DNA of 44,087 nt from Solirubrobacterales bacterium (GCA_051953975.1 JBQCIG010000256.1:1-44087); one strand, 5' to 3'; positions 7,059 through 23,129 are shown, numbered from the stretch's first letter. The notes: generated by a model not told the origin, from the letters alone. Translations and numbers: made by a program.

Positions 7059-7751
7059 CTAAGCCTTGAGGACGTAGCCGGCGCCGCGTTTGGTGTGGAG
7101 CAGCCGCGTCTCGCCACCGGCCTCGAGCTTGCGCCGCAGGTTGGAGATGAAGACGTCGATCGTGTTGGTCGCGGCCATCGGGTCATACCCCCAGACCTCG
7201 TCGAGGAGCCGCTCTCGGGAGACGACGAGGCGCTCATTGCGCATCAGGAACTCGAGCAGCTCGAACTCGCGGTTGGTCAGCTCGATCTCGCGCTCGCCGC
7301 GTCGCACTTCGCGCGTGTCGGGGTTGAGGACGAGGTCGCCCACCTCCAGCGAGGCGGCGCCGCGGGGGGGACGACGCCGCAGCAGCGCCCGGATCCGCGC
7401 CAGCAGCTCTTTGCGCTCGAACGGCTTCACCAGGTAGTCGTCGGCGCCGCTGTCGAGGCCGGTGACCCGGTCCTCGGTCTCGGCTCGGGCGGTCAGCATC
7501 AGGATCGGCACATCGCCGTCGCTGCGCAGCCGCCTGCAGACCTCGACCCCGTCGAGCCCAGGCAAGCCGAGGTCGAGCACGACCAGGTCCGGGACGAAGC
7601 CGGCGGCGACGTCGAGCGCCTCGATCCCGTCGGCCGAGGTGCGGACTTCGTAGCCCTCGTTGCGCAGCGAGCGGCGCAGGACGTCGGCGATGTCCTCGTC
7701 GTCCTCGACGACCAGGACCCGACCGCCAATTTGGTCGACTTCTGAGAGCAC
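7059..7751 (-). CDS. OmpR/PhoB-family response regulator
   Basis: Receiver domain (VLVVEDDEDI, DLVVLDLGLPGLDG, KPF) plus a winged-helix output domain (LTNREFELLEFL, RGAGYVL). GTG start. Confidence 0.9.
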   Translation of the reverse strand: MLSEVDQIGGRVLVVEDDEDIADVLRRSLRNEGYEVRTSADGIEALDVAAGFVPDLVVLDLGLPGLDGVEVCRRLRSDGDVPILMLTARAETEDRVTGLDSGADDYLVKPFERKELLARIRALLRRRPPRGAASLEVGDLVLNPDTREVRRGEREIELTNREFELLEFLMRNERLVVSRERLLDEVWGYDPMAATNTIDVFISNLRRKLEAGGETRLLHTKRGAGYVLKA

Positions 7752-7840
7752 GCACCGATGTTAGCCGCGAAAAACGCCGCTCCGCCCGGCTTTTAGGGCG
7801 AATTTAGCTCGGCAGGTGTGGCGGGATCGGCGTCGAACGG

Positions 7841-10039
7841 GTGCCCATGTTCGTGCGTAAGAAGCGCGCCGGGTCGGCGCGGCGGGGCAAGCCTGCGGCG
7901 AAACGCAAGCCGAAGGCGGGCCTGCGGCTGCCGGCCGGCCTCGAGCAGCGCCACATCGACCTGATCGCCCTCTTCCTCGTCGCCTTCGGCGTCTACCTCA
8001 CCTTCGTCCTCTTCTTCGGCTGGGAGGGGGGCAAGGTCGGCTACGGCGTCGAAACCGCGCTCACCTACCTGTTCGGGGAGGTCGGGGCGCGGATCTTCAC
8101 GGTCCTCCTGCTGACGGTCGGCGGCATGCTCCTAACCGGCACCTCGGTCTCGGCCCTGGCGCGCGGGGTCGGCAGGGGCCTGCGGGCGCTCTTCCGCGGT
8201 CTCTTCGCCGGCGGCGACGCCGCCGCCCGCACCGTCGCCAGGACCCACTCCGACTGGCGCGAGCACCGTGAAGCCCGAGCCGAGGCCGCGACCCTCGCCG
8301 GGCCCACCGATGTGATGAGCAGCTACCCGGAGGAGGACGAGGACTTCGAACCGACCGTCGCCCTGGCCGAGGAGGACAGCTTCGACGCGCAGCTCTTCGA
8401 CGCCGAGACCTCCGAAGAGGAGGGGCCGGAGCCCGAGGCAGAGCCCACGGAGCTCCAGAACTACGACTCCGAGGACGCCGCCGCGGTGGTCGATCCTGGC
8501 GACCGGGCGCACGCGGGCCTGACCCCGATGGGCTCCAAACGCGGGGTGACGATGTCGGAAGAGATCGACTACCGCCCGCCCGCGCCGAAGCTGCTGGAGC
8601 GGGGCAAAGGCGACAAAGGCCCCGACCCACGCGATCACGAGGCGGTCGGGCGCAAGCTGGTCGAGACGCTCGGCCACTTCGGCGTCGAGGCGAAGATCGT
8701 CGGCATCGTCAGTGGCCCTCACGTCTCCCGCTTCGAGCTGCGCCTCGCGCCCGGGACCAAAGTCAAGAAAGTGACCGAGCTGGCCAACGACATCGCCTAC
8801 GCGCTCGCCTCGACCGACATCCGCATCCTCGCGCCGATTCCCGGCAAGCAGGCGGTCGGGGTCGAGGTGCCGAATCGCAGCCGCAAAATGGTCCGCCTCG
8901 GCGACATCTACGCCGGCCGGCCTGAGAAGACTTCGCCGCTGGTCGCCTGGCTCGGCAAGGGGATCGACGGCAACCCGGTCTGGACCGACATCGCGAAGAT
9001 GCCGCACGTCCTCGTCGCCGGCACCACCGGCTCGGGCAAGAGCGGCTGCGTCAACGCGATCCTCTCCTCGATCCTGATGCAGGCCTCGCCGAACGAAGTC
9101 CGCCTCGTCCTCGTTGACCCCAAGCAGGTCGAGCTCAACCACTACGAGAACGTGCCGCACCTGCTGACGCCGGTGGTCACCTCGCCGCGCCTGGCCGCCA
9201 ACGTCCTCTCCAACCTGATCGGGGAGATGGAGAGCCGCTACGGGATCATGAGCGAGGCCCGCGCCCGCAACCTCGTCGAGCTCAACCGCGTCCGCCGCAA
9301 GCGGGGCGAAGCGCCGCTGCCGCACATCCTCTGCGTGATCGACGAGCTCGCGGACCTAATGATGGTCGCCCCGGCCGAAGTCGAGGACTCGATCATCCGC
9401 CTGGCGCAGAAGTCGCGCGCCACCGGCATTCACCTGGTCCTGGCGACCCAACGCCCCTCGACCGACATCATCACCGGCACGATCAAGGTCAACATCCCCT
9501 CGCGGATCGCCTTCGCCGTCTCCTCGCAGACCGATTCCCGCGTCATCCTCGACCAGGGCGGGGCGGAGGCGCTGCTGGGGCAGGGGGACATGCTCTTCCG
9601 CGGCGCCGGCACCTCAAAGCTGCAGCGCGTCCAGGGCGCCTTCATCACCGAGGATGAGATCGCCCGCATCACCTCGCACTGGGCCAAGCAGGGCGAACCG
9701 GAGTTCGAGGCAGAGCTGCTGGAGACCCCGCAGGAGAGCGGCGAGGATGGCCGCGACGACGACTTCGACCCCGACCGCGACGACCTCCTCGACGAGGCGA
9801 TCCGGCTCGTGGTCCAGACCGAGACCGCCTCGGTCTCGATGATCCAGCGGCGGCTGCGGGTCGGCTACACCCGCGCCGGCCGCCTGATCGACATGCTCGA
9901 GCGGCGCGGCGTCATCTCCGGCTACGAGGGCTCGAAACCGCGCCAGGTCCTGATCACCCAGGCCGATCTTCCCCGGGTCCTCAGCGGCGGCGATAGCGCG
10001 CCGGAGCCGATCGCGGTCGATTCGGACCCGGACGCGTAG
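7841..10039 (+). CDS. ftsK: DNA translocase FtsK
   Basis: N-terminal TM helices, acidic linker, Walker A GTTGSGKS, VIDELADLMM, and a C-terminal gamma-domain-like winged helix (SVSMIQRRLRVGYTRAGRLIDMLE). The start is GTG 7841 or ATG 7847. Confidence 0.93.
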   Translation: MPMFVRKKRAGSARRGKPAAKRKPKAGLRLPAGLEQRHIDLIALFLVAFGVYLTFVLFFGWEGGKVGYGVETALTYLFGEVGARIFTVLLLTVGGMLLTGTSVSALARGVGRGLRALFRGLFAGGDAAARTVARTHSDWREHREARAEAATLAGPTDVMSSYPEEDEDFEPTVALAEEDSFDAQLFDAETSEEEGPEPEAEPTELQNYDSEDAAAVVDPGDRAHAGLTPMGSKRGVTMSEEIDYRPPAPKLLERGKGDKGPDPRDHEAVGRKLVETLGHFGVEAKIVGIVSGPHVSRFELRLAPGTKVKKVTELANDIAYALASTDIRILAPIPGKQAVGVEVPNRSRKMVRLGDIYAGRPEKTSPLVAWLGKGIDGNPVWTDIAKMPHVLVAGTTGSGKSGCVNAILSSILMQASPNEVRLVLVDPKQVELNHYENVPHLLTPVVTSPRLAANVLSNLIGEMESRYGIMSEARARNLVELNRVRRKRGEAPLPHILCVIDELADLMMVAPAEVEDSIIRLAQKSRATGIHLVLATQRPSTDIITGTIKVNIPSRIAFAVSSQTDSRVILDQGGAEALLGQGDMLFRGAGTSKLQRVQGAFITEDEIARITSHWAKQGEPEFEAELLETPQESGEDGRDDDFDPDRDDLLDEAIRLVVQTETASVSMIQRRLRVGYTRAGRLIDMLERRGVISGYEGSKPRQVLITQADLPRVLSGGDSAPEPIAVDSDPDA

Positions 10040-10873: not shown

Positions 10874-12144
10874 TCCGCGCCGGCATCCTCGTCACCGGGA
10901 CCGAGGTGATCACCGGGCGGATAGCCGACGCCAACGGCCCCTGGATCTCCGAGCGCCTGGCCGAGCTGGGGGTCGAGGTGGCCCATATCCAGGTCGTCGC
11001 CGACCGCCCCGACGACCTCGAAGCGGCGTTGCGGTTCATGGCTGCGGAGGGAATGGACCTGATCGTCACCAGTGGCGGCCTCGGTCCGACTGCGGACGAC
11101 CTGACGGCGGAGATAGTCGGCCGCTTCGCCGGGCGGGAGATGGTCCTCGACGAGGAGATGGAGGCGAAGATCGCCGCGATCCTCGACGGCTTCGCCAAAC
11201 GCTTCCGGCTCGACCGGGCGGCGATGCTGGAGGCGAACCGCAAGCAGGCGATGGTGCCGGAGGGGGCAGTTGCCCTCGACCCGGTGGGGACCGCGCCCGG
11301 GCTGGTGGTGCCGGCAGGCGATCGGGTCGTCGTCGTCCTGCCCGGCCCGCCGCGGGAGCTGCAGCCGATGTGGCCGGTGGCGGTGGAGACGCCGCAGGTA
11401 CGGGAGATCCTCGACCGGGCGACGCCGCTGCACGGCTACACGATGCGGATGTTCGGCGTCCCCGAGTCCGAAATCGCCAAGAGCTTGCGGGAGATGGTGG
11501 GGGAGGGAGTCGACCTCGGTCGGGTCGAGATCACGACCTGCCTGCGCCGCGGCGAGATCGAGATCGACGTCCGCTACCGCGACGAGTCGGCGGGGGTGGC
11601 CGAGGCCGTGCGCGAAGGGCTGGTGCGACGGCACCGGCGCGAGACCTTCAGCATCGACGGCGAGACGATCGACTCGCAGGTGGCGACGCTGTTGCTGGGG
11701 CACCGCCTGGGGCTGGCGGAGTCCTGCAGCGGCGGCCTGCTGGCGGCGCGGATTACGGACCTAGCCGGCGCTTCGGAGTACTTCGCCGGCGGCGTCGTCG
11801 CCTACTCAAACGAGGCGAAGGCGGAGTTGTTGGGGGTCGAGCCGGAACTGATCGAGGCGAAGGGAGCGGTCTCACCGGAGGTGGCCGAGGCGATGGCGAT
11901 CGGCGCCCTGGAGCGCTTCGACGCCGACGTCGCGGTCTCGGTCACCGGCATCGCCGGCCCCGGCGGCGGCAGCGAGGAAAAGCCGATCGGCTACGTCTGC
12001 TTCAACGCCCGCCTCGCCGATGGCACCGCGATCGCCCGCGATCCGGTGATCCCCGGCGGCCGGGCCGACATCCGCGAACGCTCCGCCCTGGTCGGGCTGC
12101 ACCTGCTGCGGCAGCTGCTCGGCGAGGGGGAGGGGAGTTTGTAA
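10870..12144 (+). CDS. cinA: CinA-family competence/damage-inducible protein (MoCF-binding plus PncC-like NMN deamidase domains)
   Basis: MIRAGILVTGTEVITGRIADANGPWI, then TSGGLGPTADDLT, and a C-terminal ESCSGGLLAA..TGIAGPGGG deamidase domain. GTGA overlap with the upstream stop. Confidence 0.88.
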   Translation: MIRAGILVTGTEVITGRIADANGPWISERLAELGVEVAHIQVVADRPDDLEAALRFMAAEGMDLIVTSGGLGPTADDLTAEIVGRFAGREMVLDEEMEAKIAAILDGFAKRFRLDRAAMLEANRKQAMVPEGAVALDPVGTAPGLVVPAGDRVVVVLPGPPRELQPMWPVAVETPQVREILDRATPLHGYTMRMFGVPESEIAKSLREMVGEGVDLGRVEITTCLRRGEIEIDVRYRDESAGVAEAVREGLVRRHRRETFSIDGETIDSQVATLLLGHRLGLAESCSGGLLAARITDLAGASEYFAGGVVAYSNEAKAELLGVEPELIEAKGAVSPEVAEAMAIGALERFDADVAVSVTGIAGPGGGSEEKPIGYVCFNARLADGTAIARDPVIPGGRADIRERSALVGLHLLRQLLGEGEGSL

Positions 12145-12188
12145 ACTCCCGGAGTCCTCAATGGACAACTTCGCTTGGGAGGCGATGC

Positions 12189-12842
12189 ATGGGAAGGTCG
12201 ATTCGGGGAGCGGCGGTTTTGGCAGGCGCGGTGGCCTTGGTCGCAGTCTCTGCGCCGAGCGCTTTCGGCTCCACGGCGCAGATCGTCAAGGCCTCCGTCA
12301 ACTCGAGCTGGACTCGGGGTACCTTTGCGGGCACGGTGGAATGGTCCGGCTGCGCTCATGGGCCGAAAACCGTCGAATGCGCCTGGGTCCCATACGCCGC
12401 GATTGCGACTGGCAACTCGTCGGAAGCCTGCGAATCGTCCAGCCGCGACGCTCTCTGGGAAGGCCAGAGGCAGGCTGCGGTTGGCTCCCAGTCCTTCGAA
12501 GTGACCGAAGTCCCGCTCGACGGCAGCGGTGGCAAGGTCCTCTGCCTCGGGCTGATCGAAACGATCGTCGAGGAACTGCCTTGCATGCCTCCGGGGGAAC
12601 CGATTCCGCCCGGCTGGCACTGCCCTTACCAAACCTCGAGCGTCGATGTCCCCCTCGCATCCCGGGTCCTGGATGCGCCGACTGAACCGGATCACCCCCA
12701 CGGGGAACCGGGCGAAGGCGAACCGCCGAAACCGGTGACGCGGGAGTGTCCTCGCGGCCGTCACCGTCGCCATGGCCACTGCGTTCCACCCCGGCACCAC
12801 CGAATTTCACTCTCTCAGCACCGGAAAGCTCCGGCGGGGTAG
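12189..12842 (+). CDS. Hypothetical secreted Cys-rich protein with a His/Arg-rich C-terminus
   Basis: GGGAGG lies 6 nt before ATG 12189. Clear signal peptide (MGRSIRGAAVLAGAVALVAVSAPSAFG/STAQ). GC3 bias is present but codon choice is atypical (GAA preferred over GAG). No family recognised. The 3' end overlaps the convergent gene by 36 nt. Confidence 0.5.
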   Translation: MGRSIRGAAVLAGAVALVAVSAPSAFGSTAQIVKASVNSSWTRGTFAGTVEWSGCAHGPKTVECAWVPYAAIATGNSSEACESSSRDALWEGQRQAAVGSQSFEVTEVPLDGSGGKVLCLGLIETIVEELPCMPPGEPIPPGWHCPYQTSSVDVPLASRVLDAPTEPDHPHGEPGEGEPPKPVTRECPRGRHRRHGHCVPPRHHRISLSQHRKAPAG

Positions 12843-14504
12843 AGCTTCGCTGCTCGGGCCGTCTGGGTTGCGATCGCTGGCAAGCAGCAGCTCGATCATC
12901 GCGGCGGCATAGAAGGGCGTGGCGCCGTCGATGTCGTCGCTGGCGCACCACTCCGCATACTCGCTGAGCAACCGCTCGCGGTCGAGAAAGCCGAGCGCCG
13001 CCAATCTCGGGGCGGAGAACAGGGATCCGGCGAGGGCGCGCGCGGGGCCCCGCATCGCAGCCGCCAGCGCCGGCAGGAAGTCATCGCGCTGCGCCGGGCG
13101 GCTGACTGCGCGAGGGCAGCCGGCGCGGTCGAGCACCGCGCGCTGGACGCGACGGCGACGGCGCCAGGTGGCCGGCAGGTGACCACAGAAGCGGACCAGC
13201 TCCGGCGTCGCCAGCGGGTGGACCGCCCACAGTCCGCGCCGCATGTACATCGCCGAGCCGATCGCCAGCGTCTCCGGAACCGACCTGGCGGCTAGTGGGC
13301 GCGGCACCGGGTCGAGGGCAGCTGCGCCGTCGCCGAGGGTCTCAAGGACGGCGGGGGAGAGGAAGCGCGGCACGCCTGACCAGCGGCCCTGTCGCTCGTC
13401 GGGCGGACGGGAGGTCGCCCGCGGGGGGTCGCCCGGCCGCCACCCGCACAACTCGTCTCCGCCCAGGCCGGTGAGGATCAGGTCGGCGCCGCTTGCGGCG
13501 GCAGCGGCGAGGGCCGCGTCGGCTGCCTCGTAGTAGTACTCCTCCCACGGCATGGTCAGGCCACCGGTGGCGCGGCAGCCGCCAGGCGCCAGGGGGAGGT
13601 GGTCGAGGATGTCGACCTCGCGGTCCTGCAGCCCAAAACGCTCGACGACCAGCCCGCGGCGGCGACGCTGGTCGGCGCGGCATGGCCCGGCGAGAGAGAT
13701 CCCGCAACTATGGAGCGGCGCCCCGGACACCGCGGCGGCTGCGGCGGCTACCGAAGCCGAGTCGAGCCCGCCGCTGACCTCTATTGCGACACCGCCATGG
13801 TGGCCGTCGAGCCAGCGCCGCAACGAGGAGGTAAGGATTTCCCAGAAAGCCGCCGCTGGATCGGCGCCCGCTTTGAGCGCCGTGGGTCGCGGCAGCGGGG
13901 CAGGCTCGGGGTACTCCGCGGTGAGCGCGCCGTCGGTGCCCCTGGACGGGCGCCAGCGCAGGCGCGAGCGCTCGGTCTGCATCAGCAGGCCCGGCAGCAT
14001 CGTCGTTCGCGAGTAACCGCAGTCCGCGCGGGCCACGAAGTGTGCCGCCCGCTGCGGGTCGAGGCCGGGCTCTGAGATGAGCGGGCGCAATCGGACTGGG
14101 TCCCAGTCCCCCCACAATTCCTCGCCGCGGGCCAGCACGAAGACCGGCGCGGTTCCCCAAGAGCTCGTCTCGAGGTCGGCGCCGGCACCGGGCCCGCCGA
14201 GCGACAGGGTCAACACCGACCAGTGCAGCGGCCATTTCCGCATCGCCTTCAAGACCTCGGCGGCGGCCGCCCGCGTGGCTCGGGTGAGACCGCCGGGGCA
14301 GGGTCGCAGCCCGGACTCGGGACGGGGCTCTCCCGCACAACGCTCGCGGACCACGACCAGGAGGCGCCCGTCGCTGAGCAGCGCGAAGTCCTCCAGCGCG
14401 GGATGCCGGAATGGCTCGACGCTATTCCGGCCCGCGATCCAGCCGGTGGGGGTGGGGCGCCACGGCGAGGTAGCGTCCCGTGCATCGAGGCGAAACGCGA
14501 GCAC
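12807..14504 (-). CDS. Asparagine synthetase B-like / lasso-cyclase-like PP-loop ATP pyrophosphatase lacking the glutaminase Cys nucleophile
   Basis: 565 aa. SGGLDSAS PP-loop, LILTGLGGDELCG, and an AsnB-type C-terminal region (HPLATPELVRFCGHLP...). The N-terminus is MLAFRLD, with no Cys2. The GTG start at 14504 lies inside a hairpin arm, so the start is uncertain. Confidence 0.75.
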   Translation of the reverse strand: MLAFRLDARDATSPWRPTPTGWIAGRNSVEPFRHPALEDFALLSDGRLLVVVRERCAGEPRPESGLRPCPGGLTRATRAAAAEVLKAMRKWPLHWSVLTLSLGGPGAGADLETSSWGTAPVFVLARGEELWGDWDPVRLRPLISEPGLDPQRAAHFVARADCGYSRTTMLPGLLMQTERSRLRWRPSRGTDGALTAEYPEPAPLPRPTALKAGADPAAAFWEILTSSLRRWLDGHHGGVAIEVSGGLDSASVAAAAAAVSGAPLHSCGISLAGPCRADQRRRRGLVVERFGLQDREVDILDHLPLAPGGCRATGGLTMPWEEYYYEAADAALAAAAASGADLILTGLGGDELCGWRPGDPPRATSRPPDERQGRWSGVPRFLSPAVLETLGDGAAALDPVPRPLAARSVPETLAIGSAMYMRRGLWAVHPLATPELVRFCGHLPATWRRRRRVQRAVLDRAGCPRAVSRPAQRDDFLPALAAAMRGPARALAGSLFSAPRLAALGFLDRERLLSEYAEWCASDDIDGATPFYAAAMIELLLASDRNPDGPSSEALPRRSFPVLRE

Positions 14505-14512
14505 GGGACGCT
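14472..14512 (-). promoter_or_regulatory. Perfect 12-bp stem hairpin between the small peptide ORF and the AsnB-like gene (attenuator-like)
   Basis: AGCGTCCCGTGC (14472-14483) and GCACGGGACGCT (14501-14512) are separated by a 17-nt loop. The upstream arm on the minus-strand transcript (14501-14512) contains the GTG start codon (14504-14502) of the AsnB-like ORF. Confidence 0.5.
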
Positions 14513-14519
14513 GCTACGC

Positions 14520-14705
14520 CTACTCGTCGTCGGCGAACTGGGCTTTTCCCTTCGCGTCGCGCGGGGGTTCGACCTTGGCCTCCGCCTCCTCTGCCTCGCC
14601 GGACGCCCGGCTTGCGACCGGTTCGCCGTCGAAGAGGTCGAGACCGTCGGGTACTTCTATCCGCGCTGCGGGTTTCGCATCTCCGGAGTTTCTACTACGC
14701 GTCAT
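14520..14705 (-). CDS. Small acidic peptide ORF (61 aa), candidate precursor or substrate peptide
   Basis: GGGAGGAG sits immediately upstream of ATG 14705. The ORF encodes MTRSRNSGDAKPAARIEVPDGLDLFDGEPVASRASGEAEEAEAKVEPPRDAKGKAQFADDE. It ends 15 nt before the AsnB-like start. GC3 bias holds over most of its length, and the first codons are rare ones (AGA, ATA, GTA). Confidence 0.4.
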   Translation of the reverse strand: MTRSRNSGDAKPAARIEVPDGLDLFDGEPVASRASGEAEEAEAKVEPPRDAKGKAQFADDE

Positions 14706-14844
14706 TGCTCCTCCCGTCGGAATAAACACAGTAGAACACAGCAGTGAAGTAACCACTATGTAATCACACCATCCTGATCTCTATCCAGCCCGACTGCTCC
14801 CGCCTTGTTCCAATTCGGACCGATCCCCGTGACGCACTTTTGAC

Positions 14845-14889: not shown

Positions 14890-15489
14890 ATGGCCAAGGA
14901 AAGACTGAAGAGCCCGCGGGCGCGCCTGTTCGTCGCCCTCGACCTGCCGGATCGGATCCGGGAGGGGATCGCGGCGTGGGGAAGGGAGGCGCTGTCGGAT
15001 CCGGCGCTGCGGCCGGTCCCGGTCGAGTCCCTCCACGTCACCCTTGCCTTCCTCGGCTACCGGCCGGAGAAGGAGGTGGAGCGGATCGCCGCAGCGGTGC
15101 GGTAAAGCGCCGGCGCGGCGGCGCTGGTCGAGCTGCTCGACCCGGTCCAGCGTCCGCCGCGGGGGAGGGCGCGGCTGTTCGCGCTACCGGCGCTCTAGCC
15201 CGGCGCGGAGGCGCTGCAGGCCGGGTTGGAGCAGAGACTTGTCGAAGGGGGCTTCTACGAGCCCGAGAAGCGGCCGTTCTGGCCGCATGTGACCGTGGCT
15301 CGGGTGCGTCCCGAGGCGCGGGGATCGAGGCGACCGGCGGTCGTCGCGGATCCGCCGGCGAAGTTGCCGGCAGGCCTGTCGGAGGCTTTTCTTGGCGTCC
15401 GGCTGGCTCTGTACCGTTTTGAACTTAAGCCTACGGGTGCGCAATACGTGCCCCTGGCCCAAATCGAGCTGCCCGGAGCAGGGTGGTAG
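14890..15489 (+). pseudogene. thpR: RNA 2',3'-cyclic phosphodiesterase (2H phosphoesterase, ThpR/LigT) interrupted by two in-frame stop codons
   Basis: Both 2H-family HxT motifs are present in one frame (LHVTLAFLG and PHVTVARV). In-frame TAA at 15103-15105 and TAG at 15196-15198. There is no frameshift: ORFs 14854..15105 and 15226..15489 share a frame. Confidence 0.65.
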
Positions 15490-23063: not shown

Positions 23064-23129
23064 GGGACCTGGGGGAGGTCCCGGAGGAGCCTCCCCAACT
23101 TTGCGACGGAGGGACCTCCCCCAGGTCCC
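23064..23129. repeat. Nested palindromic inverted repeat between the epimerase and MBL genes
   Basis: GGGACCTGGGGGAGGTCCC (23064-23082) and GGGACCTCCCCCAGGTCCC (23111-23129) are exact reverse complements. Each arm is itself a 7-bp hairpin with a 5-nt G or C loop. Confidence 0.55.

Follow-up and report, generated by a model that had tools for sequence, protein, structure and literature searches.

A Putative Two-Gene RiPP Module Pairing a Lys-x5-Asp Precursor Peptide with an AsnB-Superfamily PP-Loop Enzyme

The Precursor-Enzyme Locus

The window analyzed here, a 44,087-nucleotide stretch of DNA from a Solirubrobacterales bacterium (GCA_051953975.1 JBQCIG010000256.1:1-44087), contains a small peptide gene followed, after a gap of 15 nt between its stop codon and the next start, by a gene for an AsnB-superfamily enzyme (Table 1). 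The module is surrounded by the housekeeping genes ftsK, cinA, recA, miaB, and miaA, and its immediate neighbors are a gene for a secreted protein without a Pfam match and a LigT pseudogene. A preliminary description of this DNA had reported a 565-aa ORF with SGGLDS and GLGGDE motifs and an N-terminus lacking Cys2, an upstream 61-aa ORF with a ribosome-binding site next to its ATG, and a perfect 12-bp hairpin enclosing the GTG of the enzyme; all of these were recovered, the enzyme by both sequence and Pfam.

Table 1. Coordinates and supporting basis of the features of the module.
Feature	Coordinates	Strand	Basis
AsnB-superfamily PP-loop enzyme, proposed peptide macrolactam synthetase	12807..14504	(-)	565 aa, Pfam, AF2, Foldseek
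N-terminal domain, Ntn-glutaminase-like fold without Cys nucleophile, ~residues 1-205	13890..14504	(-)	alignment and structural alignment
PP-loop SGGLDS, ATP pyrophosphatase signature, residues 244-249	13758..13775	(-)	invariant in homologue alignment
GLGGDE, second nucleotide/Mg-binding motif of AsnB-type synthetase domains, residues 346-351	13452..13469	(-)	alignment
Precursor peptide gene, 61 aa	14520..14705 (stop TAG 14520-14522)	(-)	ORF with SD; related ORFs upstream of relatives' enzymes
Shine-Dalgarno-like GGGAGGAG of precursor gene	14708..14715	(-)	read from sequence; function inferred
Leader recognition motif E17-V-P-D-G-L-D-L-F25	14631..14657	(-)	conserved motif; enzyme-binding role inferred
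Core K44-V-E-P-P-R-D50-A-K-G-K54: Lys-x5-Asp ring motif and basic tail	14544..14576	(-)	conservation
Hairpin, perfect 12-bp stem and imperfect extension, contains enzyme GTG 14504-14502	14464..14520	(-)	inverted-repeat search, folding

The HMM search suggested in the preliminary description assigns the enzyme to Pfam Asn_synthase (PF00733; E = 2.5e-15, 57.4 bits against a cutoff of 21, residues 239-521). The GLGGDE motif, to which established knowledge of AsnB assigns a role in Mg/ATP binding, is, like the invariant PP-loop, conserved among homologues, with G346, G348, G349, and E351 invariant and D350 kept in at least 90%, and the alignment shows further invariant residues in the N-terminal domain (W15, P31, V52-R53-E54, W116-G117, A119-P120, and W134). 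Over their full length, the best Foldseek matches to the AF2 model (pLDDT 87, pTM 0.88) are beta-lactam synthetase, which ranks first, TsnB9, carbapenam synthetase (CarA), and AsnB (E = 1e-17 to 1e-11 over ~580 columns); when the family profile was searched against PDB sequences, the PP-loop was the sole segment matched, in NAD synthetase and AsnB chains. With the PP-loop, the second motif, and the two-domain AsnB fold all present, the enzyme is a member of the AsnB superfamily. It scores below the cutoffs of both the AsnB equivalog model TIGR01536 (16.2 bits versus 267.1) and the lasso-cyclase model NF033535 (20.5 bits versus 525). Weak matches in the family are most often to the lasso-cyclase NCBIfam model (17 of 19 members, best E = 8e-12), and PADLOC matched nothing among the enzyme and accessory proteins.

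The enzyme ORF begins with MLAFRLD, and because this "ML.F.L" N-terminus, which has no Cys2, is kept in 18 of 19 aligned homologues, the GTG inside the hairpin stem is the true start. No alternative upstream start with a Cys exists for this ORF, and a corrected start, which the preliminary description had named as a way in which its proposal could fail, does not reveal Cys2. An ordinary AsnB with a mis-called start is thus ruled out by the conserved N-terminus without Cys.

The Shine-Dalgarno-like sequence of the precursor gene ends 2 nt ahead of its ATG (at 14705), and the encoded peptide has a net charge of approximately -6. Its core is followed by AQF and then by the acidic end ADDE. Neither Pfam nor NCBIfam contains a family that matches the precursors of the window and eight other loci.

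The hairpin that lies between the genes pairs two 12-mers without mismatch (14472-14483 and 14501-14512), and its imperfect extension reaches from the precursor stop codon to codon 14 of the enzyme. The window has just one other spaced perfect inverted repeat of 12 bp or longer, so the hairpin is beyond chance in this G+C-rich DNA; its 121-nt context folds at -54.7 kcal/mol (z = -2.5), with 2 of 200 shuffles folding as well. There is no U-tract at the window hairpin, and neither a promoter nor a terminator of the module emerged from a consensus scan. A strong stem-loop separates precursor and enzyme in ~8 of 27 related loci, and in the closest relative (L007) the two genes are 8 nt apart and the hairpin is absent. 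We therefore rejected the hairpin as a defining feature of the module, of which it is a frequent accessory.

Conservation of the Gene Pair and of the Precursor Cores

Across 50+ related loci from approximately ten phyla, a small ORF of one and the same family lies ahead of the enzyme gene in essentially all cases where upstream DNA is available. The pair is kept in all three look-ups (3/3), in the genome-scan loci, and in those metagenome-scan loci that have upstream DNA, and it occurs in Actinomycetota, Acidobacteriota, Pseudomonadota, Nitrospirota, Verrucomicrobiota, Bacteroidota, Cyanobacteriota, Desulfobacterota, and Gemmatimonadota. Clustering the enzyme clade at 50% identity gives at least 438 clusters, and the family has the two-gene layout more often than any other. 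Relatives are named "asparagine synthase" in the source databases, and no description of this family was found in the full-text literature searched.

The genes beside the pair differ from locus to locus. Among the related loci we found no other gene universally conserved beside it, so the reaction should not depend on an earlier proteolytic step. B1/B2 genes are missing from the surroundings of the pair in the window, as noted in the preliminary description, and in related loci, and no B1/B2-type family is conserved across 28 loci; the PqqD and transglutaminase families are absent from the Pfam lists of L001, L003, and L005. The related loci contain no conserved ATP-grasp gene, the sole conserved enzyme being of the PP-loop/AsnB type. 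Most loci, including the window, have no protease gene; about a dozen encode, or carry as a fusion, an HExxH peptidase-like domain with a G-x-A-D-x-x-G motif. A glycosyltransferase gene lies 3' of the enzyme in ~13 loci, and the 44-kb window contains no glycosyltransferase, PT-HINT/HExxH, Cys-rich, Laminin_G_3 giant, or aerolysin-like gene. A canonical lasso cluster, or a decayed one as the preliminary description had also considered, is ruled out, since no B1/B2 genes were found and members of this large family normally have just the two genes.

The leader motif of the precursor family is P-x-G-x-[DE]-[LIMV]-F. The form [IV]P[DTN]G..[LIMV]F is present in 17 of 25 precursors and in a looser version in the remaining ones, and the motif is retained even where precursors are fused to large domains, such as the PT-HINT/HExxH or aerolysin-like domains found in some of them. 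Between 1 and 15 or more tandem cores follow per precursor, each with an invariant Lys-x5-Asp and then a basic tail, and these basic cores alternate with acidic spacers. When the cores were aligned by anchoring only on D-x-[QKR]-x-[KR], without reference to Lys, a Lys was found at D-6 in 51/51 unique cores and in at most 9 of 51 at any other upstream position. A small residue follows the core Asp (Ala in 36 of 54 cores), the tail after Asp is ~5-7 residues long, and the position -2 relative to the core Lys is mostly P, L, A, or V, in agreement with the earlier observation of no Thr at -2 of any plausible cleavage site. Gly/Ala residues, which are frequent in the other cores, are missing from the window ring KVEPPRD.

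Six-frame translation of every locus gave matches to the strict core pattern only upstream of the enzyme and on the same strand. Small ORFs upstream of the enzyme homologues are conserved, and change at the codon level is mostly synonymous: the window precursor differs from the L007 cores by 6-7 synonymous versus 2-3 non-synonymous codon changes, while pairwise comparison of the six L015 repeats gives 61 synonymous versus 5 non-synonymous differences. By this measure the cores are under purifying selection. The C-terminal residue differs among precursors (E, D, N, K, G, W, M, V, or T), and most cores lie internally as repeats; we rejected amidation of the C-terminus, or its conversion to a nitrile, for this lack of conservation.

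These comparisons displace the 8-residue Gly21...Glu28 ring proposed in the preliminary description, as both positions belong to the conserved leader motif, invariance being confined to K44 and D50. The FADDE-like end, whose recurrence upstream of other enzymes was to be checked, recurs only in L007, where it is an acidic spacer between repeated cores, and by this comparison the FADDE of the window is a spacer remnant. The pair has what the general definition of a RiPP calls for on sequence grounds, namely a precursor with leader and core and a co-located, jointly conserved modifying enzyme; the modification itself is predicted.

A Proposed Macrolactam-Forming Reaction and Its Alternatives

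The conserved pair, the start without Cys2, and the lack of B1/B2 genes, on each of which the earlier suggestion could have failed, support its view that this is an uncharacterized peptide-modification module, distinct from canonical lasso clusters and maybe a new lactamization system. The reading that we favor, at somewhat better than an even chance, is that of a minimal two-gene RiPP-type module in which the PP-loop enzyme would form a Lys-Asp isopeptide macrolactam in each core. The E17-F25 leader motif would bring the precursor directly to the enzyme with neither an RRE nor a leader protease, probably by docking on the conserved, catalytically dead glutaminase-like N-terminal domain. AsnB-type enzymes adenylate a carboxylate and then pass it to an amine. 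Here, the PP-loop synthetase domain would use ATP to adenylate the side-chain carboxylate of Asp50, and the epsilon-amine of Lys44, six residues upstream, would attack the acyl-adenylate, closing a 7-residue macrolactam through a Lys-Asp isopeptide bond (-18 Da), with a short basic tail attached. Where relatives carry many tandem cores, one such reaction would take place in each of them.

This bond is predicted from conservation and from the chemistry of the enzyme family; the best structural matches, which form lactams intramolecularly, and the weak lasso-cyclase matches agree with it. Lys is the obvious amine because ammonia acting on an internal Asp would give only Asn, which is encodable, and because Lys is invariant at a fixed spacing; alternatively, the invariant Lys might serve recognition or cleavage. 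Counting against our reading, as do the atypical ring of the window and the limited conservation of the hairpin, the side-chain Lys-Asp/Glu macrolactams of known RiPPs are made by ATP-grasp enzymes and not by PP-loop enzymes. The Lys-to-C-terminus ring of class V lasso peptides was considered as a precedent for an epsilon-amine cyclase and rejected, as it is made by a clostripain-like transpeptidase.

Beginning at the precursor stop and burying an enzyme GTG that lacks a Shine-Dalgarno sequence, the hairpin most likely limits enzyme relative to precursor output, by attenuation or by stabilization of the mRNA 3' end, and it may couple enzyme translation to ribosomes completing the precursor. 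The alternation of acidic spacers with basic cores, together with the PT-HINT/HExxH or aerolysin-like fusions, suggests that the products are probably cationic cyclic peptides acting as antimicrobial or toxin payloads. We consider evenly poised the wider proposal of an undescribed RiPP class in which a stand-alone AsnB/PP-loop enzyme would iteratively make Lys(i)-Asp(i+6) macrolactams, the cationic ring peptides being antimicrobial or toxin payloads that in some lineages are fused behind PT-HINT/metallopeptidase or pore-former-like domains.

Alternatively, a protease might cut just before the core Lys, so that the alpha-amine of Lys1 would attack the adenylated Asp7 and each core would yield a lasso-type or branched-cyclic 7-residue ring with a short basic tail. 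The K1...D7 spacing corresponds to the smallest lasso ring, which has 7 residues, and the weak lasso-cyclase matches, the precedent of triculamin, which is made without B proteins, and the HExxH peptidase-like domain, which could be the processing protease, all fit such a route. However, it would lack a protease in most loci, including the window, and an alpha-amine nucleophile leaves the Lys of all 51 cores unexplained, as residue 1 varies in lasso peptides. The absence of Thr at the putative -2 position, a tail too short for a conventional threaded lasso, and a score far below the lasso-cyclase cutoff also speak against this route, which we judge quite unlikely.

A different fate of the adenylated Asp, with Lys serving only for recognition, is also unlikely. 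The acceptor could be an external amine (a polyamine, an amino sugar, a hydroxylamine/hydrazine-type donor, or ammonia), and natural-product AS-like enzymes do transfer ammonia, hydroxylamine, or hydrazine or make nitriles (PMC13060819, PMC13622209), but the glutaminase nucleophile is absent, no conserved gene would supply a special amine, and conversion of Asp to Asn would be pointless given that Asn is encodable. Attack by a backbone nitrogen could give an aspartimide, or a strained lactam if the reaction resembled that of beta-lactam synthetase; that enzyme and TsnB9 are among the top structural matches, the small residue after Asp favors imide formation, and the glycosyltransferase gene that follows the enzyme in some loci would also fit another fate. 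Against these possibilities, the strict invariance of Lys at a fixed distance exceeds the usual demands of recognition, and known C-terminal modifiers act on conserved C-termini, whereas those of the precursors here are variable and the cores are internal repeats. Finally, the housekeeping surroundings and the database label would suit a divergent housekeeping amidotransferase beside a chance ORF or regulatory leader peptide, with no peptide modification at all. This is very improbable: the small ORF is conserved as a protein across phyla and has repeated cores, the enzyme lacks Cys2 and scores 16 bits against the AsnB equivalog cutoff of 267, and the flanking genes differ at every locus. Lys invariance, core-pattern specificity, and synonymous bias in the sequences effectively refute it.

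Relationship to Known Systems and Implications

The module appears to be a relative, not yet described, of the lasso-peptide and graspetide pathways. Like canonical lasso clusters (precursor A, RRE B1, protease B2, and cyclase C; McjABC), it has a precursor just upstream of an AsnB-superfamily enzyme without the glutaminase Cys, an Asp six residues past the putative amine-bearing residue, and, in some loci, a stem-loop after the precursor gene, in addition to the weak model matches. Unlike them, it lacks B1/B2 and a Thr at the putative -2 position, Lys invariably occupies residue 1, the cores may be many and their basic tails very short, and the enzyme, well below the lasso-cyclase cutoff, forms its own large clade. 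Beta-lactam and carbapenam synthetases (1mbz, 1q15), the best two-domain structural matches (E = 1e-17 to 1e-15), share the inactive glutaminase-like N-terminal domain and catalyze ATP-dependent intramolecular lactam formation, as proposed here, but they act on small molecules without a precursor peptide and are only 13-19% identical.

In common with graspetides (microviridins, plesiocin), the module would have a side-chain Lys to Asp/Glu macrolactam topology, repeated rings on tandem cores, and a leader motif bound directly by the cyclase. Its enzyme is of the PP-loop AsnB type (acyl-AMP) and not an ATP-grasp ligase (acyl-phosphate), and the precursor families are unrelated; if the chemistry were confirmed, the two systems would be convergent. 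Outside lasso peptides, the AsnB-like enzymes of RiPP pathways are known only to amidate C-termini or to turn them into nitriles or hydrazides. Such enzymes (TsrC and ScdTA for amidation, PesC for nitrile, and FzmA for hydrazide) modify the C-terminal carboxylate of ribosomal peptides using glutamine, ammonia, or a special donor (PMC13060819, PMC13622209), whereas the conserved acid of the module is an internal Asp in repeated cores and its enzyme has no glutaminase nucleophile. Triculamin-type pathways (TriA/TriC; 10.64898/2026.07.03.736388, PMC12070363) are similarly a B-protein-free minimal combination of precursor and AS-like macrocyclase with highly cationic products, a property predicted for the module; TriC has been proposed to recognize its precursor directly, as we propose for the enzyme described here. 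However, TriC lacks the N-terminal domain that is strongly conserved in the module enzyme, and the module precursors have an N-terminal leader with C-terminal, often repeated, cores and lack the PGDG core motif of triculamin.

A 2026 survey left ~300 uncharacterized AS-like RiPP candidates unassigned (PMC13060819). The module defines one such candidate group by its enzyme clade, precursor family, leader motif, and invariant Lys-x5-Asp core, and lasso-type genome-mining rules that require B1/B2 miss this whole branch of AS-like peptide cyclases. If the proposed chemistry is correct, side-chain macrolactams would gain a new enzymatic route, peptide engineering would gain a compact two-gene cyclization system that works iteratively under leader guidance, and a family of small cationic cyclic peptides would become available as antibiotic candidates. 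As an undescribed class, the module would be the PP-loop counterpart of the ATP-grasp graspetides, extending over about ten phyla and at least 438 enzyme clusters.

Precursor gene and conserved cores

The small ORF and the AsnB-like enzyme gene in the window very probably form a genuine precursor-enzyme modification pair. The enzyme ORF and its motifs, the small ORF, and the hairpin are present in the sequence as given in the preliminary description, and GGGAGGAG sits 2 nt ahead of the precursor ATG. The expectation that homologues of the enzyme carry a conserved small ORF upstream was borne out across the genome and metagenome loci.

Location of the module and its neighbors in the window, and of recurrent features in related loci (L handles)
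Feature	Location	Strand	Description
Precursor ORF	ATG 14705, TAG 14520-14522	-	61 aa; ends 15 nt upstream of enzyme gene
Leader motif	E17-VPDGLDLF-F25 of precursor		
Core	K44-VEPPR-D50-AKGK54 of precursor		
Hairpin	arms 14472-14483 / 14501-14512		perfect 12-bp stem enclosing enzyme GTG
Enzyme gene	12807-14504	-	565 aa; GTG start; N-terminus MLAFRLD
SGGLDS motif	enzyme residues 244-249		read from sequence
GLGGDE motif	enzyme residues 346-351		read from sequence
Cys-rich secreted protein gene	12189-12842	+	217 aa, signal peptide; converges on enzyme gene, 36-nt overlap at 3' end
LigT/ThpR-like 2H-phosphoesterase gene	14890-15489	+	divergent neighbor of precursor gene
Strong stem-loop	window, L015, L018, L021, L022, L025, L028, L029		
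Upstream accessory set	L007 27-5595; also L022, L025, L029, L034, L057		
Precursor fusions	L022 4095-5954; L028 2297-5863; L029 2460-4835; L057 2052-3944		

In each of the first three contexts fetched, a small ORF resembling the window peptide lies directly upstream of the enzyme gene. The precursor of a Solirubrobacteraceae relative (58% identical) contains ...DGSELF... and then QAKVPPARDAKGKAQFADD three times in tandem, that of the Acidobacteriaceae locus contains KGTAGxDAQxRR in four copies, and that of the Pyrinomonadaceae locus has a single copy, KAGSAKDAQKKQKK. A genome scan at one genome per species identified 28 loci, and a metagenome scan 24 more. The former are found in Solirubrobacteraceae, Acidobacteriaceae, Pyrinomonadaceae, Nocardia, Streptomyces (five species), Actinocorallia, Actinomadura, Sphingomonas, Nitrospira, Opitutus, Undibacterium, Maridesulfovibrio, Roseivirga, Nostocaceae, and Gemmatimonadota, among others. 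Cultured strains with the module include Nocardia vaccinii NBRC 15922, Streptomyces longispororuber JCM 4784, S. typhae p1417, Actinocorallia longicatena JCM 9377, Sphingomonas rustica HF-S3, and Undibacterium sp. TJN19. Wherever the enzyme gene is complete and DNA upstream of it is available, a precursor-type ORF is present, except in L035. The precursors of the window and eight other loci have no family model in Pfam or NCBIfam.

In L035 (2031-3905 of a metagenome contig), a DAHP-synthase-like N-terminus takes the place of the first 22 enzyme residues and there is no precursor gene; the enzyme is identical to P0002 where the two overlap, and the locus probably reflects chimeric assembly or rearrangement. 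L026 and L027 come from a single 140-kb Nostocaceae contig (JBHYDF010000001.1, 1-11009 and 111194-124885), on which the module occurs in identical form close to each end; this could mean that a circular replicon was assembled with redundant termini or that the module is truly duplicated.

Of 25 precursors, 17 contain the leader motif [IV]-P-[DTN]-G-x-x-[LIMV]-F, and the remainder have looser [DE]-[LIV]-F-E variants. Each precursor carries from 1 to 15 or more cores in tandem, of the form K-x-x-[GA]-[GA]-x-D-A-[QK]-x-[KR]-[KR], with acidic spacers often parting neighboring cores. When cores were anchored on the Asp and the downstream basic residues alone, with the Lys excluded from selection, a Lys was found at D-6 in 51 of 51 unique cores and in at most 9 of 51 at any other upstream position. 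Searched in six frames of every fetched locus, the strict core pattern matched exclusively in the stretch upstream of the enzyme gene, on the strand of the enzyme. Across 16 codons, window and L007 cores (L007 being the closest relative) differ by 6-7 synonymous and 2-3 non-synonymous changes, and the six repeats of L015 by 61 synonymous versus 5 non-synonymous pairwise codon differences, which shows purifying selection on the precursor peptide. The invariance of the Lys, the specificity of the core, and the bias toward synonymous change indicate that the small ORF is translated, is under selection, and co-evolves with the enzyme.

These observations support the main interpretation of the preliminary description, a peptide-modification module, with a corrected anatomy in which the leader spans E17-F25 and the core K44-D50. 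The Gly21...Glu28 pair proposed there as the ring falls inside the leader motif and differs from the conserved reactive pair, K44/D50. The FADDE-like end is present but is not a conserved motif; it is a spacer remnant, the AQF-ADDE end of the window peptide being the counterpart of the tail and acidic spacer in the multi-core L007 precursor.

Some precursors have an N-terminal beta-rich domain, of ~220 aa in the identical L012 (5140-5991) and L041 (3140-3991) and of ~140 aa in L015 (5026-5916). None of these domains has a Pfam or NCBIfam match; their role may be that of a protein-like leader.

The enzyme family

The Asn_synthase Pfam model matches enzyme residues 239-521 (E = 2.5e-15). An 'ML.F.L' N-terminus is present in 18 of 19 full-length homologues, which are 36-58% identical and align from residue 1, so the GTG within the hairpin is the true start. 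As the alignment of these 19 homologues lacks the N-terminal Cys nucleophile, the family is not a glutamine-dependent asparagine synthetase; an ordinary AsnB with a mis-called start is thereby ruled out. The window enzyme falls far short of every curated NCBIfam cutoff, scoring 16 bits against the AsnB model (cutoff 267), 20.5 against the lasso cyclase model (cutoff 525), and 34.6 against the XrtA-type amidotransferase model (cutoff 817). The lasso cyclase and AsnB models each weakly match 17 of the 19 family members, with best E-values of 8e-12 and 1e-8, respectively. An exhaustive profile search over 1.84 billion cluster representatives recovered 438 at E <= 1e-30, nearly all full-length, 964 at E <= 1e-10, and 6,865 at E <= 1e-3; the family is a sizeable, well-separated clade within the AsnB superfamily.

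An AlphaFold2 model built from the family alignment is confident, with a mean pLDDT of 87 and a pTM of 0.88, and pLDDT values <50 are confined to the loop 362-373 and the C-terminal 19 residues. The latter overlap the convergent gene, and this overlapped tail is unique to the window protein. In Foldseek comparisons against the PDB, both domains align along their whole length to AsnB-type proteins, including beta-lactam synthetase (E = 1e-17), the hydroxyamidotransferase TsnB9, carbapenam synthetase, and AsnB (E = 1e-12). The PP-loop is the sole segment recognizable by sequence among solved structures. Within the family, conservation is strong in the N-terminal domain (~residues 1-205), where W15, P31, V52-R53-E54, W116-G117, A119-P120, and W134 are among the invariant residues. 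This conservation suggests that the domain has a function although it is incapable of glutamine hydrolysis.

The hairpin and the gene neighborhood

With imperfect extensions, the inverted repeat around the enzyme start covers 14464-14520, beginning at the precursor stop and ending in codon 14 of the enzyme gene. The perfect stem, its rarity (the 44-kb window has only one other spaced perfect inverted repeat of 12 bp or more), and a local fold at z = -2.5 relative to shuffles indicate that the hairpin is real and beyond chance. A strong stem-loop lies between precursor and enzyme in ~8 of 27 loci, accompanied in some by U-runs, and is absent from L007, where 8 nt separate the two genes; it is thus a recurrent accessory and not a defining part. 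Because the stem in the window starts at the precursor stop and buries the GTG of an enzyme gene that has no good SD sequence, the arrangement suggests that little enzyme is made and that its translation may be coupled to the termination of ribosomes at the end of the precursor. Leaky terminators and 3'-end stabilizers are described in other RiPP operons, and by analogy either could equally be the role of this hairpin. A scan with consensus patterns detected neither a canonical terminator nor a canonical promoter for the module. At 23064-23129, an inverted repeat of 19 bp (GGGACCTGGGGGAGGTCCC), perfect and with 28 nt between its arms, forms the strongest hairpin of the window and is probably a terminator.

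Clustering of all ORFs across the loci leaves the precursor and the enzyme as the only universal genes; no RRE, transglutaminase-type protease, or ABC exporter is conserved across them. In ~13 loci, a GT1/GT4 glycosyltransferase of ~570 aa is encoded directly downstream of the enzyme. Its GT4-conflict match is marginal (27.6 bits in L014, where 26 is the cutoff; L028 and L031 score below it). In L014 the glycosyltransferase gene (7644-9347) overlaps the enzyme stop, and some cores at glycosyltransferase loci have no Ser/Thr in the ring. In L005 (Pyrinomonadaceae), the glycosyltransferase is followed by five paralogous 120-143-aa proteins (11795-14289) and a 3,245-aa protein (14383 onward) with no Pfam match.

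About a dozen loci encode a PT-HINT and HExxH peptidase-like protein (~480 aa), a Cys-rich protein (190-280 aa, CxxC...CxxCGC), and a giant Laminin_G_3 protein (~2,000 aa). Several of these loci have the HINT/HExxH module joined to the precursor N-terminus. The four tabulated fusions comprise a Cys-rich N-terminus, PT-HINT, an aspzincin-like HExxH...G-x-A-D-x-x-G peptidase-like domain, and, at the C-terminus, a leader-like motif with 5 to 15 or more cores. This architecture resembles that of polymorphic toxins, with a putative cyclic-peptide array in the toxin position. An aerolysin/Cry23-like beta-rich protein (weak PDB match to 4rhz, E = 0.11) adjoins the module in L015 (4095-4961), L040 (180-1565), and the Streptomyces loci L016, L017, and L032; in L040 this domain is fused directly ahead of the leader motif and seven cores.

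In the window the precursor-enzyme pair stands alone, and none of the recurring accessory genes is found anywhere in the 44 kb. The convergent Cys-rich protein has no Pfam match. The LigT-like gene is otherwise continuous across two in-frame stops (TAA 15103-15105, TAG 15196-15198), and both of its halves match Pfam LigT_PEase; it is either a pseudogene or affected by sequence errors. Beyond it lies recA, with ftsK, cinA, miaB, and miaA farther away.

Proposed chemistry and relation to known systems

AsnB-type synthetase domains adenylate a carboxylate and pass it to an amine, which is intramolecular in beta-lactam synthetase, carbapenam synthetase, and lasso cyclases. Here, the carboxylate would be the invariant internal Asp of the core. 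The amine would have to be one beyond the ribosome's reach, since ammonia on Asp would yield just Asn, which can be encoded directly. The only other invariant core residue is the Lys, always six residues upstream of the Asp, so that in the simplest reading each core would acquire a Lys(i)-Asp(i+6) isopeptide macrolactam on the intact precursor. The absence of a conserved protease, the internal core repeats, and the constant Lys at residue 1 fit this scheme, to which we give somewhat better than even odds.

A lasso-like closure, in which the alpha-amine attacks after cleavage before the Lys, is quite unlikely. An alpha-amine mechanism does not require residue 1 to be Lys, which favors the side-chain reading. 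Canonical lasso systems are the closest in kind, sharing a precursor beside an AS-like cyclase; counted from the Lys, the Asp of the module is at position 7, which would match a lasso ring. Unlike canonical lasso clusters, the module lacks B1 and B2 (the RRE and leader-protease genes) and a Thr at position -2 of the putative cleavage site before the Lys, and its enzyme stays below the cyclase model threshold. Some other fate of the acyl-adenylate (capture by an external amine, or formation of an aspartimide or strained lactam) is unlikely. That this is not a peptide-modification system is highly improbable given the selected, enzyme-associated cores.

Triculamin exemplifies B-free lasso biosynthesis; its cyclase is truncated at the N-terminus and its pathway relies on a C-terminal follower (10.64898/2026.07.03.736388, PMC12070363), an arrangement opposite to that of the window module. 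Graspetides have the proposed topology and repeated cores in common with it, but their enzymes are ATP-grasp. The AS-like RiPP enzymes TsrC, ScdTA, PesC, and FzmA act on C-termini (PMC13060819, PMC13622209). In class V lasso peptides a clostripain-like transpeptidase, and not the cyclase, closes the ring between the Lys and the C-terminus. A 2026 survey counted ~300 uncharacterized AS-like RiPP candidates and described none (PMC13060819). We found no description of this precursor family or enzyme clade in a full-text literature search that covered few subscription journals, so an earlier account may exist. The module is best filed as a ribosomal peptide cyclized by an AsnB-like enzyme. If the Lys-Asp chemistry is correct, it would probably represent a new RiPP class.
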